A DNA stretch of 64,000 nt from Escherichia coli. Its GTDB lineage: Bacteria; Pseudomonadota; Gammaproteobacteria; Enterobacterales; Enterobacteriaceae. Numbering within the stretch: the first letter of the stretch is position 1; every line of letters starts with the position of its first letter. The notes beneath the pieces are model-generated. The model was not told the DNA's origin, searched no databases, and was given only the letters and a program-made list of their open reading frames with translations. The stretch lies in NCBI RefSeq assembly GCF_003018255.1, contig NZ_CP027440.1. One strand, written 5' to 3'. The translations under genes and the position numbers were made by a program. Shown here piece after piece: positions 4,645 to 53,049 of the stretch.

Positions 4645-5526
4645 ATGAAAGGTATTATCCTGGCGGGCGGTTCCGGCACCCGATTGCATCCGATTACGCG
4701 CGGCGTATCGAAGCAACTGTTGCCGATTTACGATAAGCCAATGATTTACTATCCGCTGTCGGTGCTGATGCTGGCCGGTATCCGCGAAATTCTCATCATC
4801 ACTACGCCGGAAGATAAAGGTTATTTCCAGCGCCTGCTGGGCGATGGTAGTGAGTTCGGTATCCAGCTGGAATATGCCGAGCAGCCCAGTCCGGACGGTC
4901 TGGCGCAGGCCTTTATCATCGGTGAAACCTTCCTCAACGGTGAACCTTCTTGTCTGGTGCTGGGCGATAACATCTTCTTCGGACAGGGCTTCAGTCCGAA
5001 GCTGCGTCATGTTGCGGCGCGCACGCAAGGCGCGACGGTATTTGGCTATCAGGTGATGGATCCGGAACGCTTTGGCGTCGTGGAGTTTGACGACAATTTC
5101 CGCGCTATCTCGCTGGAAGAAAAGCCAAAACAGCCGAAGTCAAACTGGGCGGTGACCGGGCTTTATTTCTACGACAGTAAAGTCGTGGAGTACGCAAAGC
5201 AGGTGAAGCCGTCGGAGCGTGGTGAACTGGAGATTACCTCCATCAACCAGATGTACCTCGAGGCGGGCAACCTGACCGTTGAACTGCTCGGGCGCGGATT
5301 TGCCTGGCTGGACACTGGCACTCACGACAGCCTGATTGAAGCCAGCACCTTTGTACAGACGGTGGAAAAACGCCAGGGCTTTAAGATTGCCTGCCTGGAA
5401 GAGATCGCCTGGCGTAACGGCTGGCTTGATGACGAAGGCGTGAAGCGCGCCGCCAGCTCGCTGGCGAAAACTGGCTACGGCCAATATCTGCTGGAGTTAC
5501 TTCGTGCCCGTCCGCGCCAGTATTGA
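4645..5526 (+). CDS. rffH: glucose-1-phosphate thymidylyltransferase
   Basis: 293 aa; [18 protein letters not shown] nucleotidyltransferase signature (RmlA family). Confidence 0.9.
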
Positions 5527-6178
5527 GCCACTAACCTGGGAAAACGCCTTCTTTGGTGTTAACAGCGCCATTGTGCGCATTAGTCCTGAAGCACCGCTCC
5601 TGACGCCAGACGCCTTAGCGCCGTGGTCACGGGTGCAGGCCAAAATTGCGGCATCAAATACGGATGAACTGGATGCCTTGCAACAGCTGGGATTCTCCCT
5701 GGTAGAAGGTGAAGTTGATTTGGCGCTACCCGTAAACAATGTCAGTGATAGTGGTGCTGTAGTGGCACAAGAGACCGATATTCCCGCATTACGTCAGTTA
5801 GCCAGCGCCGCATTTGCGCAAAGCCGTTTTCGTGCGCCGTGGTATGCGCCTGACGCCAGCGGTCGCTTTTATGCACAGTGGATTGAAAATGCCGTGCGCG
5901 GCACCTTTGATCATCAATGCCTCATTTTACGTTCGGCGTCCGGCGATATTCGTGGCTATGTCTCTTTACGGGAACTCAATGCGACAGATGCGCGAATTGG
6001 CCTGCTGGCTGGACGCGGTGCAGGTGCTGAGCTGATGCAAACAGCGCTAAACTGGGCGTATGCTCGCGGTAAAACAACTTTGCGGGTGGCGACCCAAATG
6101 GGCAACACCGCCGCGCTAAAACGATACATACAAAGTGGTGCGAATGTAGAAAGCACCGCGTACTGGTTATACAGGTGA
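5504..6178 (+). CDS. wecD: dTDP-fucosamine acetyltransferase
   Basis: 224 aa GTG-initiated ORF in the expected ECA position between rffH and wecE; GNAT-like C-terminal region. Confidence 0.8.
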
Positions 6179-48520: not shown

Positions 48521-50782
48521 ATGACAATTCTTAATCACACCCTCGGTTTCCCTCGCGTTGGCCTGCGTCGCGAGCTGAAAAAAGCGCAAGAGAGTTATTG
48601 GGCGGGGAACTCCACGCGTGAAGAACTGCTGGCTGTTGGGCGTGAATTACGTGCCCGTCACTGGGATCAACAAAAGCAGGCGGGTATCGACCTGCTGCCG
48701 GTGGGCGATTTTGCCTGGTACGATCATGTACTGACCACCAGTCTGCTGCTGGGTAACGTTCCGCCACGTCATCAGAACAAAGATGGTTCGGTAGATATCG
48801 ACACCCTGTTCCGTATTGGTCGTGGACGTGCACCGACTGGCGAACCTGCGGCGGCAGCGGAAATGACCAAATGGTTTAACACCAACTATCACTACATGGT
48901 GCCGGAGTTCGTTAAAGGCCAACAGTTCAAACTGACCTGGACGCAGCTGCTGGAGGAAGTGGACGAGGCGCTGGCGCTGGGCCACAAGGTCAAGCCCGTG
49001 CTGCTGGGGCCGGTTACCTACCTGTGGCTGGGTAAAGTGAAAGGTGAACAGTTTGATCGCCTGAGCCTGCTGAACGACATTCTGCCGGTTTATCAGCAAG
49101 TGTTGGCAGAACTGGCAAAACGCGGCATTGAGTGGGTACAGATCGACGAACCAGCGCTGGTACTGGAACTACCGCAGGCGTGGCTGGACGCATACAAACC
49201 CGCTTACGACGCGCTCCAGGGCCAGGTGAAACTGCTGCTGACTACCTATTTTGAAGGCGTAACGCCAAATCTCGACACGATTACTGCGCTGCCTGTTCAG
49301 GGGCTGCATGTGGACCTTGTACATGGTAAAGATGACGTTGCTGAACTGCACAAGCGTCTGCCTTCTGACTGGCTACTGTCTGCGGGTCTGATCAATGGTC
49401 GTAACGTCTGGCGCGCCGATCTTACCGAGAAATATGCGCAAATTAAGGACATTGTCGGCAAACGCGATTTGTGGGTGGCATCTTCCTGCTCGTTGCTGCA
49501 CAGCCCCATCGACCTGAGCGTGGAAACGCGTCTTGATGCAGAAGTGAAAAGCTGGTTTGCCTTCGCCCTACAAAAATGCCATGAACTGGCACTGCTGCGC
49601 GATGCGCTGAACAGTGGTGATACGGCGGCTCTGGCAGAATGGAGCGCTCCGATTCAGGCGCGTCGTCACTCTACCCGTGTCCATAATCCGGCGGTAGAAA
49701 AGCGTCTTGCAGCCATTACCGCCCAGGACAGTCAGCGTGCGAATGTCTATGAAGTGCGTGCTGAAGCCCAGCGTGCGCGTTTTAAACTGCCCGCGTGGCC
49801 GACTACCACGATTGGTTCCTTCCCGCAAACCACGGAAATTCGTACACTGCGTCTGGATTTCAAAAAGGGTAATCTCGACGCCAACAACTACCGCACGGGC
49901 ATTGCGGAACATATCAAGCAGGCCATTGTCGAGCAGGAACGTTTGGGACTGGATGTGCTGGTACATGGCGAGGCCGAGCGTAATGACATGGTGGAATACT
50001 TTGGCGAGCATCTGGATGGCTTTGTCTTTACGCAAAACGGTTGGGTACAGAGCTACGGTTCCCGCTGCGTGAAGCCACCGATTGTCATTGGTGACGTTAG
50101 CCGCCCGGCACCAATTACCGTGGAGTGGGCGAAATATGCACAATCGCTGACCGACAAACCGGTGAAAGGGATGCTGACGGGGCCGGTAACCATACTCTGC
50201 TGGTCATTCCCGCGTGAAGATGTCAGCCGTGAAACCATCGCCAAACAAATTGCGCTGGCGCTGCGTGATGAAGTGGCGGACCTGGAAGCCGCTGGAATTG
50301 GCATCATCCAGATTGATGAACCGGCACTGCGCGAAGGTTTACCGCTGCGTCGCAGCGACTGGGATGCCTATCTCCAGTGGGGCGTGGAGGCTTTCCGTAT
50401 CAACGCCGCCGTGGCGAAAGATGACACACAAATCCACACTCACATGTGTTACTGCGAGTTCAACGACATCATGGATTCGATTGCGGCGCTGGACGCAGAC
50501 GTCATCACCATCGAAACCTCGCGTTCCGACATGGAGTTGCTGGAGTCGTTTGAAGAGTTTGATTATCCAAATGAAATTGGTCCAGGCGTCTATGACATTC
50601 ACTCGCCAAACGTACCGAGCGTGGAATGGATTGAAGCCCTGCTGAAGAAAGCGGCAAAACGCATTCCGGCAGAGCGTCTGTGGGTAAACCCGGACTGTGG
50701 CCTGAAAACGCGCGGCTGGCCAGAAACCCGCGCGGCACTGGCGAACATGGTGCAGGCGGCGCAGAATTTGCGTCGGGGATGA
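48521..50782 (+). CDS. metE: cobalamin-independent methionine synthase
   Basis: 753 aa; [23 protein letters not shown]-terminus; C-terminal zinc-binding motifs ([16 protein letters not shown]). Confidence 0.95.
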
Positions 50783-50818
50783 TGAGTATTAACGAGTCAT
50801 TGTAAATTGCAGTACGAT

Positions 50819-50846
50819 AATGGCTTCCAGTACTGGAAGCCATTTT
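50819..50846 (+). terminator. Rho-independent terminator after metE
   Basis: Hairpin AATGGCTTCCAG-TACT-GGAAGCCATT followed by TTTG. Confidence 0.7.
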
Positions 50847-50950
50847 GCATGAGTGCCAGATTGAAGCAGATCTTCAGGAGTAGAAATAACCGAATCGTTT
50901 TTTTCGCAAAACACAGTTTTGAGTGATTCCGTTCAGTAATCAACGCTACG

Positions 50951-51211
50951 TTATTTATTCTCACGTTGCACGAGATTGTATCCCTTTTCACTAACGTGGT
51001 AGTGAGGCATAGACTTATGCCCGCTATCCTCAATAATAACCAAACCTTCGTTAGCTAATTTGTTAACAATATTAACAATATTACCGAATCCTGGTATTTG
51101 CCTTATGGATAGTGTGCGATCGAGATTCATCCAGTTCCAGTTTATATCTTTCTCAGTCATAACGTTCAGCACGTTAAGTTCATTTTTAGTGATCACGATA
51201 TTCTGTACCAA
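50951..51211 (-). CDS. second paralog of putative immunity protein (possible orphan immunity)
   Basis: 86 aa; clearly paralogous to the 51271-51528 product (shared IVxxNxLxVMxEKDIxWxWMxLDRTLxIRxIPGFGNxxNIVxKLxNxGLVxI pattern); AT-rich. Confidence 0.55.
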   Translation of the reverse strand: MVQNIVITKNELNVLNVMTEKDINWNWMNLDRTLSIRQIPGFGNIVNIVNKLANEGLVIIEDSGHKSMPHYHVSEKGYNLVQRENK

Positions 51212-51270
51212 AATTGATGAGTATCTTATTGAAAGATCACAATGTAAATCATGCTCCTGTAATGGCTGGA

Positions 51271-51528
51271 TCAGAAGAGGTTGTCTTGTTGTTCTTTGAT
51301 AAGATTCAATCCATATTGAGAAACTCTGTAGCGTGGTTTAGAGTTGCCCTCACCATTTACGATATCAACCAACCCATGATTAACCAGCTTTGTTACGATA
51401 TTCGCTACGTTGCCAAATCCTGGAATATTTCGTATAGCTAAAGTACGATCCAGCACCATCCAGCTCCAGTCAATATCTTTCTCAGCCATAACTTTCAGCA
51501 CGTTAAATTCAACTATCGTAATCGTCAT
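51271..51528 (-). CDS. putative cognate immunity protein of the Hcp-fusion effector
   Basis: 85 aa; start codon overlaps the stop of the upstream Hcp-fusion gene (ATGA at 51525-51528), the arrangement typical of effector-immunity pairs. Confidence 0.55.
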   Translation of the reverse strand: MTITIVEFNVLKVMAEKDIDWSWMVLDRTLAIRNIPGFGNVANIVTKLVNHGLVDIVNGEGNSKPRYRVSQYGLNLIKEQQDNLF

Positions 51529-52658
51529 TTTTTTGCATCCGGATGAAATAAGTCAGTATCTTTAATTTTAAAGTCTTCTAGAGTTGCAGTATGTACATTA
51601 TTCCATAATTCATATCCATCTAAACCTTTCGGTTCACCTGTTTCCCATCCTAAATTACAATAACGCTGATACTCGCGACATTCATGAGTATAGTAGTTCA
51701 GATCGTATTTTTCAGGAAGCAATTCTTTATTTGCTATTTTCTTTAGCCTTGAAATCATTACATCATTAGCTGGATCATGATCAAATCTGGAGATATGCTT
51801 TTCAACAATAGCGATACCTTCCCTGTTGATTGTTACGCCATCTATCGTCAGGTTTTCAATTGGACCACCGGCAAGGTCGGGATTAAATGGTCTTCCTGAT
51901 ACTGCTCCTCTGGCTCCGAAATGCTCAAGTGATTCCAAATCAGGGAATCTCATTCTTCCCAGAACAACTCCAGCAACTATTGAAGCACCAGCGATGAGTA
52001 ACCCTTTGTTATCCATAACTTGATCGTAACCAGCAGGTGCATCTCCTCCCAACTTGTTTGCTGTTTCCCTGAATCCTTCGATATTCCCATTGTATATGCC
52101 GCCAGCAGCAAGCAGTCTGCCAACCGCTTTACTATTGAGTGTTTTGAGGCCATTATCATCTTTAGTTTTTGGCCGTGGTATAAACAGACGGTTGTAGTTA
52201 TCGGGAAATGCCAAATAACTAAATTCAGTATTAGCAATCAGATGCCTGGAGAGTATATATTCATAACTGGCAGTGATGGTTTCTGTATCCAGATTGTTCT
52301 CAGTAAACAGGTGATTGATTGCTGATAAGAGCGCGCCGCGGAGTTGAATGTTGTAATATTTCTCCCATCGACCAAATCTATTGATCCGATAGAAGTCAAA
52401 CTCCATGAACAACTGCTCGTTATTGTTAATAGCGTTAATAAGTAACGGGGAGCTTTTGTCAATCAACTTACAGAAACTAAGGCCATGTAATTGTGACCCT
52501 TTGCCTGTATTCGTAATACTATTAGATAGCGAGAACGCGAAGATTTCATCTTCATGGCCAATCTGCCAGCGATTACCTATTGATGCGCTCGTTCCGCAAC
52601 GAGAGGAAATACATCCTTGTTGTTCTCCGGTTATGGTCAGGTAAATAATATCACTCAT
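51525..52658 (-). CDS. Hcp-domain protein with C-terminal extension (candidate T6SS Hcp-effector fusion, Hcp-ET-like)
   Basis: 377 aa; N-terminal ~165 aa match the Hcp tube-protein signature (YLTITGEQQG...DEIFAFSLSNSITNTGKGS...LSFCKLIDKSSPLLINA; compare Hcp FIKIGDVKGES...IDVLAWSWG...LSFTKYIDKSTPNL); ~210 aa C-terminal extension of unrecognised fold; AT-rich. Confidence 0.7.
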   Translation of the reverse strand: MSDIIYLTITGEQQGCISSRCGTSASIGNRWQIGHEDEIFAFSLSNSITNTGKGSQLHGLSFCKLIDKSSPLLINAINNNEQLFMEFDFYRINRFGRWEKYYNIQLRGALLSAINHLFTENNLDTETITASYEYILSRHLIANTEFSYLAFPDNYNRLFIPRPKTKDDNGLKTLNSKAVGRLLAAGGIYNGNIEGFRETANKLGGDAPAGYDQVMDNKGLLIAGASIVAGVVLGRMRFPDLESLEHFGARGAVSGRPFNPDLAGGPIENLTIDGVTINREGIAIVEKHISRFDHDPANDVMISRLKKIANKELLPEKYDLNYYTHECREYQRYCNLGWETGEPKGLDGYELWNNVHTATLEDFKIKDTDLFHPDAKK

Positions 52659-53049
52659 CCTTGAAAAACCTTTTGTTAATTCTTTTGTGAAAGAAAAATA
52701 GTATTGTTATTTTTTACCTTTATTTACGCCCAAAAGGGATGAACTAAAATGTGAAAAACAAAATGTTTCACTTTAATATCTTTTTATCAGGAAGGTCTGA
52801 GATAATTTATAATTAATGTGAATGTGTTGATAATAATTAATGTTTGTTTGAGAATGGGAGTTGATGGTAAATCTCTAAGGTGTCTGCCAGTGAAGAGACT
52901 CATTTATGACTATGACTTGCCGACTTTCTTAAGGTCAAATAGCGGAGTCGTGCTCTCCAATCAATTCATACTGATTATTTTTTGGGGGACAGAGATGGCA
53001 GCAAAATGCACTCGTTCACTCACCATCTCAAATATAGACTAAGAGGAAA

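Follow-up and report, generated by a model that had tools for sequence, protein, structure and literature searches.

What does a type VI secretion system (T6SS) tube protein carry when its C-terminus is extended by 230 amino acids (aa)? The question is raised by an open reading frame (ORF) of 377 aa at 51525..52658, minus strand, in a 64,000-nucleotide stretch of an Escherichia coli chromosome (contig NZ_CP027440.1; the whole stretch is referred to here as the window). Its product begins with an Hcp (TssD) domain. The initial annotation had read the C-terminal ~210 aa as one unassigned, putative toxin domain, possibly with a new fold or, given a glycine-zipper-like segment, aimed at membranes. 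All strings on which that reading drew, PRPKTKDDNGLKTLNS, GLLIAGASIVAGVVLG (aa 219-234) and INREGIAIVEKHISRFDHDPANDVMISRLKKIANKE...YYTHECREYQRYCNLGWETGE, are present in the protein, and residue 165 begins at 52166, so that 51525-52166 corresponds to aa 165-377 plus the stop codon. We find that the extension is made of two separable modules, a connector and a toxin domain, and that the latter is, by homology, a member of the carocin D/S3 killing-domain family. The idea of a toxin domain on Hcp therefore stands, while that of a single ~210-aa domain does not.

The N-terminal Hcp tube-protein domain (aa 1-147; 52218..52658, minus strand) is complete, with 124.5 bits against TIGR03344 over aa 1-147 (cut-off 58.9) and an E of 1.5e-13 for Pfam T6SS_HCP (PF05638) at aa 6-135. 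Past the Hcp part, the fusion protein gave no Pfam or NCBIfam match at E<=10 and nothing in PADLOC. The published minimum for an Hcp C-terminal extension that holds a toxin (Hcp-ET) is either >60 aa or >=120 aa; the 230-aa extension, of which 135 aa form the toxin-family domain, exceeds both. We regard the gene as real because public databases list the identical protein and 846 of 5426 complete E. coli genomes contain the toxin-coding DNA.

A carocin D/S3-type killing domain behind Hcp

The toxin domain (aa 243-377; 51528..51932, minus strand, with the stop codon at 51525-51527) matched by BLASTP the C-termini of carocin S3K (47% identity over 118 aa, E 2e-33) and carocin DK (43% identity over 122 aa, E 5e-30), both as printed in the supplement of PMC7461348. 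Because of these matches, the domain can be placed in the carocin D/S3 killing-domain family, and all residues that are invariant in the family are present in the carocin D and S3 killing domains. The tie to pyocins G and SX2 goes through carocin D/S3 and a published statement that the cytotoxic domains of these two pyocins, whose immunity proteins are ~10 kDa, have carocin D and carocin S3 as their only homologues. The label 'unassigned' was thus right as far as Pfam, NCBIfam and PADLOC are concerned, and wrong in that the domain is homologous to the killing domains of experimentally toxic bacteriocins. In the same supplement, the row called 'Pyocin S3K' is the same as carocin DK over long stretches and is probably mislabelled; we did not use it, and the figure accordingly says nothing about the true pyocin S3 DNase domain.

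The start of the toxin domain proper can be set at ~aa 243, because one relative with an unrelated N-terminus (P0088) is alignable only from KHFGARG onward. A phmmer search with aa 240-377 against 1.84 billion representatives returned 462 clusters at E<=1e-3 and 339 at E<=1e-10 (counted at 50% identity). The domain ends at most 28 residues from the C-terminus in 136 of 142 representative carriers. The carriers are 138 to 5214 aa long and include Hcp, PAAR, Rhs/YD-repeat (one with an SpvB-like N-terminus), LysM-containing and DUF8093 proteins, proteins above 5000 aa, many 'S-type pyocin / colicin transporter' proteins, and bacteriocins of the colicin, pyocin and klebicin types. With its many clusters, its C-terminal place and its varied carriers, the domain behaves as a polymorphic toxin. 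The phage collection held no copy of the toxin.

Several of the bacteriocin carriers could be located precisely. A tblastn search of plasmids placed the toxin domain in a 747-aa protein on 7-kb ColE1-like E. coli plasmids (NZ_CP075644.1, 3142-5385), in an operon with the textbook colicin layout of activity gene, 90-aa gene and lysis gene; in this protein Pyocin_S (PF06958, aa 468-597, E 1.7e-21) lies directly ahead of the toxin domain. Klebsiella plasmids of 5.8 kb carry the domain in a 780-aa klebicin-like protein (NZ_CP065166.1, 1297-3639). No named colicin was found for either the 747-aa or the 780-aa protein. At the toxA locus of Pseudomonas aeruginosa, a 711-aa pyocin combines the pyocin S2 N-terminus with this toxin domain and is followed by an 85-aa 'immunity protein'.

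The E. coli and Klebsiella plasmid bacteriocins come with an 87-90-aa immunity gene and a lysis gene and are annotated merely as 'S-type pyocin domain-containing protein'; the Klebsiella plasmid has an additional, separate 'bacteriocin immunity protein' gene. Past the 85-aa immunity gene at toxA lies a colicin-immunity-domain gene, and the annotated record also contains colicin E3/pyocin S6-type cytotoxin fragments together with an immunity gene of the pyocin S6 family; displaced modules seem to have piled up at this locus. In Pectobacterium carotovorum, a bacteriocin of the HNH type that is complete and has its own immunity gene is followed downstream by an orphan fragment (4665-5590), in which a Pyocin_S piece, a 108-aa toxin-domain piece and an 87-aa immunity gene are combined.

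An alignment of 71 sequences revealed nine invariant residues: R256, G281, H288, D319, H325, E326, E329, W352 and H356 in full-length numbering (R17, G42, H49, D80, H86, E87, E90, W113 and H117 in domain numbering), with E122 (domain numbering) nearly invariant. A cluster of H, E, C and Y residues had been picked out earlier; its two cysteines are not conserved in the family. AlphaFold2 modelled the toxin domain with a predicted local distance difference test (pLDDT) score of 93 and a predicted template modelling (pTM) score of 0.86, as a short N-terminal hairpin, four long helices and a short C-terminal helix. The invariant residues sit mostly on the helices of this model.

No family member among the 71 had a Pfam match at E<=0.001, and the toxin domain itself had none in Pfam, NCBIfam, PADLOC or PHROGs. 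Sequence and profile searches of the PDB with the domain produced chance matches only. The initial annotation had proposed structure prediction with a Foldseek comparison, and this gave, besides the confident helical model, only toxin-family members among the 50 AFDB50 matches listed; pyocin, colicin and klebicin-like proteins with the domain at their C-terminus are among them. Taken together, the confident helical model, the chance-only PDB profile matches and the absence of a Pfam match point to a fold without a recognisable solved relative.

The families that had been set aside at the outset, namely HNH, colicin-DNase, pyocin S3 (Pyocin_S), Tle (DUF2235) and papain-like domains, indeed gave no Pfam match at E<=10. 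Three further candidates were considered and rejected. A colicin D-type tRNase (PF11429; carocin S2, klebicin D) had no match in the toxin domain or its relatives, and carocin S2, described as colicin D-like, does not align with the domain in the printed alignment (PMC7461348). The Hcp effector T6EC4, which Geller et al. describe from Citrobacter, resembles Tox-REase-5 and belongs to another family. The 'pyocin S3' domain of Hcp-ET3, which from its Usp-like architecture we take to be Pyocin_S, is absent from the fusion in the window.

The likeness to carocins D and S3 extends to gene arrangement: the domain is C-terminal, a ~85-90-aa immunity gene then follows, and in carocin S3 the toxin and immunity genes overlap by ATGA, as in the window. 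The carocins differ in having receptor-binding, translocation and Pyocin_S/inner-membrane-translocation (IMT) domains where the fusion has Hcp and a novel connector, and in their diffusible delivery, as opposed to what would be contact delivery by a T6SS. Pyocins G and SX2, with their ~10-kDa immunity proteins, act in the cytoplasm after FtsH-dependent import; they kill at nM concentrations and require FtsH and TonB1, as well as the IMT domain, for reaching the cytoplasm.

Among Hcp effectors, Hcp-ET1 to ET5 (Ma et al. 2017), including Usp, are described as carrying HNH-DNase, DUF2235/Tle1, Pyocin_S plus colicin-DNase, and papain-like peptidase toxins. They resemble the present protein in joining Hcp to a C-terminal toxin, in their orphan loci and in their downstream immunity genes, which are sometimes duplicated; they differ in that none of these toxin domains is found by Pfam in the fusion. 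Hcp-toxin fusions are already known, and so are carocin D/pyocin G-type toxins from bacteriocins; within the literature library that could be searched, no paper joined the two.

The connector ahead of the toxin

The remainder of the extension is a connector (aa 148-242, with a conserved module at ~170-242; 51933..52217, minus strand), delimited by conservation, PHROG matches and AlphaFold2. It consists of a disordered part (148-172), a three-helix module (~177-216), a hydrophobic helix and the junction RMRFPDLESLE. Relatives found in a search with aa 165-377 split into two groups. Members of the first keep the whole stretch behind another N-terminus, as in 348-aa DUF8093/PF26362 proteins of Pantoea, Klebsiella and Cronobacter; in members of the second, just the initial ~70 aa are kept, and these lead on to colicin D (PF11429), DUF6883 (PF21814) or another C-terminal domain.

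What the carriers share is a ~66-aa connector core (51957-52151, minus strand, aa 170-234) with the motif KT(L/I)NSKA.GRLLAAGG.YNGN.EGF..TA..LGGDAPAGYDQVMDNKGL.IAGAS.AAGL..GR. It is conserved at 80-90% before at least five unrelated C-terminal toxin domains (the window toxin, colicin D, DUF6883 and two unassigned ones), and either Hcp or DUF8093 stands ahead of it. Sequence divergence among the carriers begins directly past G-R-x-x-x-P-E-L-E, a boundary that looks like a recombination junction, and the connector as a whole seems to be a pre-toxin module that can be reused, with a defined point of exchange. The core matches phrog_31266 and phrog_14497 (E ~1e-15), both PHROG families without an assigned function.

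The Gly/Ala-rich hydrophobic segment GLLIAGASIVAGVVLG (aa 219-234; 51957..52004, minus strand) belongs to this connector. The highest 19-residue Kyte-Doolittle mean of the protein, 1.69, is centred there on aa 229 and is borderline for a membrane helix. In an AlphaFold2 model of aa 148-377, the three short helices at aa ~177-216 have a pLDDT of 84-90 and the toxin domain is above 90, and the values fall below 50 at aa 148-172 (disordered) and aa 222-247; the hydrophobic GLLIAGASIVAGV segment is helical yet unpacked, with a pLDDT below 50.

By position, the connector recalls Pyocin_S/IMT (PF06958), the inner-membrane-translocation domain found only alongside cytoplasm-acting toxins: it too lies directly upstream of a cytoplasm-acting toxin domain, and the window's toxin family uses IMT in bacteriocins. 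The two differ in that IMT is ~140 aa and beta-rich, while the connector is ~70 aa and helical, with a hydrophobic helix at its end. Pyocin_S had no match in the Hcp fusion at E<=10, against 1.7e-21 for the plasmid colicin with the same toxin. That the connector might be a functional analogue of IMT is only a hypothesis, drawn from this analogy.

Immunity genes, alleles and the island

Directly downstream of the toxin, an ORF of 85 aa (51271..51528, minus strand; immunity 1) has an ATG start that shares bases with the toxin stop codon in an ATGA (AAAAAATGACG). Its place, its size and the overlap are those expected for a ~10-kDa cognate immunity protein, and we infer that it is the cognate immunity gene. 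Homologues of 80-86 aa are found directly 3' of the toxin domain behind two other carriers, with 65% identity to immunity 1 behind a DUF8093-type carrier and 25% behind P0088, and they keep the W..W..DR..G..N positions. The pairing of toxin and immunity gene is therefore conserved across carriers. By inspection, the immunity proteins are without signal peptide, hydrophobic stretch or transmembrane segment; they show a weak, non-significant winged helix-turn-helix (wHTH)-like similarity (PDB 2eth, E 0.079; Pfam EarA, 0.14).

A paralogue, immunity 2 (50951..51211, minus strand), encodes 86 aa from a TTG start, or 81 aa from the GTG at 51196 where RefSeq starts it, and is about 58% (56-59%) identical to immunity 1. 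Its origin is illuminated by the alleles of E. coli. The 846 genomes with toxin-coding DNA comprise 727 at >=95% identity and 119 at 80-90%; Hcp/connector DNA and immunity DNA give the same genome numbers. An alternative allele in O145:H28 encodes 382 aa and is 89% identical overall, being near-identical to ~aa 290 and diverging beyond. It has one immunity gene (2248-2493 of its locus), which is 88% identical to immunity 2 of the window and 59% identical to immunity 1. From these two identities it follows that the window island probably carries, beside its own cognate immunity gene, that of the rival allele, a make-up of toxin and immunity alleles that is typical of polymorphic-toxin evolution. 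Because the alleles diverge at aa ~290-377 and each has a matching immunity type, this region is suggested to hold the determinants of immunity specificity. Immunity 2 would be either an orphan cross-immunity gene or the relic of a replaced toxin C-terminal end with its immunity gene.

The three genes lie in a low-GC (guanine-cytosine) island (50783..53049) between metE (48521-50782) and ysgA. In the composition profile, the island of ~2.3 kb has a GC of 0.35-0.43, against ~0.52-0.56 in the flanks. The RefSeq gene order at a 99.5% identical locus is metE, hypothetical, hypothetical, tssD, ysgA. Carriers include the type strain ATCC 11775 and strain 83972.

Annotation of the locus varies between genomes. 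Full-length copies are named 'TssD', truncated ones 'HNH endonuclease', 'colicin' or 'IS1 orfB' (a Shigella sonnei fusion), and the NCBI names for the immunity genes are 'MarR family transcriptional regulator' or 'hypothetical'. The gene calls in UTI89 and APEC O1 begin at internal start codons and give 229 and 163 aa. At least one E. coli genome (NZ_CP101222.1) has an IS1 insertion within the island, and Shigella copies are truncated.

Proposed action and competing explanations

We consider it probable that the protein is a specialised Hcp effector, composed of an Hcp tube domain, a connector and a carocin D/S3 - pyocin G/SX2 toxin that acts in the cytoplasm. The intact Hcp domain and the precedent of the Hcp-ET effectors suggest that the fusion would become part of a T6SS tube and be shot into Enterobacteria nearby. 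The helical toxin of ~135 aa would then reach the cytoplasm and work there as an enzyme, a location to which the soluble immunity proteins, the IMT association in bacteriocins and the need of PyoG and SX2 for FtsH all point. Its active centre may be formed by the invariant His, Asp, Glu, Arg and Trp residues on helices 1, 3 and 4 (H288, D319, H325-E326-x-x-E329, W352-x-x-x-H356). It would attack nucleic acid and so shut down gene expression; we lean somewhat towards an RNA- or translation-linked target over DNA, with a lesser share left for something else, because SX2 showed no DNase activity yet inhibited transcription-translation and the DNase reports for carocins are contested. The translationally coupled 85-aa soluble protein would protect the producer, presumably by 1:1 binding, and immunity 2 would protect against sister strains with the other allele. 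The connector and its hydrophobic Gly/Ala helix would serve as a reusable 'pre-toxin' adaptor, perhaps assisting the toxin in crossing or engaging the inner membrane, as Pyocin_S/IMT does in bacteriocins.

A number of points weigh against this proposal. No T6SS cluster lies within the 64-kb window, and the T6SS dependence, toxicity and immunity of the Hcp fusion are all inferred. The spatial clustering of the invariant residues is deduced from helix positions alone, and a membrane role of the connector is speculation, its segment being borderline in hydropathy and of low pLDDT. Published activities conflict, with carocin D and S3 reported as DNases in vitro and SX2 not, and the dose-dependent inhibition of coupled in vitro transcription-translation by SX2 amounts to only 50% at 200 ng. 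Finally, the carocin D/S3 immunity protein family is not detectably related to that of the window: hhalign of the window's immunity proteins against the bacteriocin-type ones, which have a KGPNWKEP motif, gave a probability of 0.3%.

The chief competing explanation is that the toxin domain is a DNase. It would account for the reported digestion of DNA by carocins D and S3 in vitro, the invariant His, Asp and Glu residues would suit a metal-dependent hydrolase, and IMT association is typical of nuclease bacteriocins. However, none of the metals tried made purified SX2 nick plasmid, in contrast to the HNH control SX1; the carocin S3 study reported DNase activity for the immunity protein itself as well, suggesting a contaminating nuclease; and the domain has no similarity to known DNase folds. 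We therefore hold a DNase to be possible, though clearly less probable than the cytoplasmic effector in its general form. A specifically HNH or colicin-type endonuclease, as some NCBI names on truncated copies would have it, is scarcely credible. None of the 71 members matched HNH or Colicin-DNase in Pfam at E<=0.001 (one chance HNH_4 match reached 0.08), neither the query nor its relatives matched PF01844, PF12639 or PF21431, and the predicted model is all-alpha, without a beta-beta-alpha-metal core; moreover, the same name is given to a protein (P0120) whose C-terminus is colicin D, so that the label does not track the domain.

The suggestion that the extension attacks membranes or forms pores through its glycine-zipper-like helix does not hold up well either. 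There is one hydrophobic Gly/Ala-rich helix, of the borderline hydropathy given above, but it is the only such segment and lies outside the toxin domain, in a separate connector that enzymatic toxins, for example colicin D-type tRNases, have as well; bacteriocins, Rhs and PAAR proteins carry the toxin domain without this connector. The immunity proteins are soluble, IMT precedes the domain in bacteriocins, and PyoG and SX2 depend on FtsH import to the cytoplasm. We rate a membrane toxin as very improbable. An undeployed relic, with a fusion that is not secreted or with small ORFs that are MarR-like regulators, would fit the orphan locus without T6SS genes in the window, the 'MarR family transcriptional regulator' label with its weak wHTH-like similarity, and the truncated and IS1-disrupted copies. 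Yet 841-846 complete genomes have an intact ORF, 95-100% identical, the toxin and the small ORFs co-occur, the small gene stays behind the toxin across carriers, and toxin and immunity differ together between the two alleles, as for a specific toxin-immunity interaction. A relic is thus improbable, if less so than a pore-former.

Going beyond the Hcp effector as proposed, we tentatively raise a more specific and rather doubtful version, in which the carocin D/pyocin G-type domain would be an unclassified non-DNase enzyme fold that knocks out one particular part of the gene-expression machinery, for instance a tRNA, an rRNA site or a factor, and the ~70-aa connector with its hydrophobic helix would be a second, T6SS-specific inner-membrane route interchangeable with IMT.

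The finding bears on a common feature of the species, since about 1 in 6 complete E. coli genomes carries an effector annotated merely as 'TssD', with immunity genes called 'hypothetical' or 'MarR'. With their matching immunity genes, the two natural E. coli alleles place the likely region of specificity at aa ~290-377. The tie to carocin D/pyocin G joins three fields that have been treated separately, those of T6SS effectors, Rhs/PAAR toxins and colicin-like bacteriocins. The effector thereby offers an E. coli-native model for a widespread family of 462 clusters that has no Pfam entry or solved structure and for which the activity reports are contradictory.

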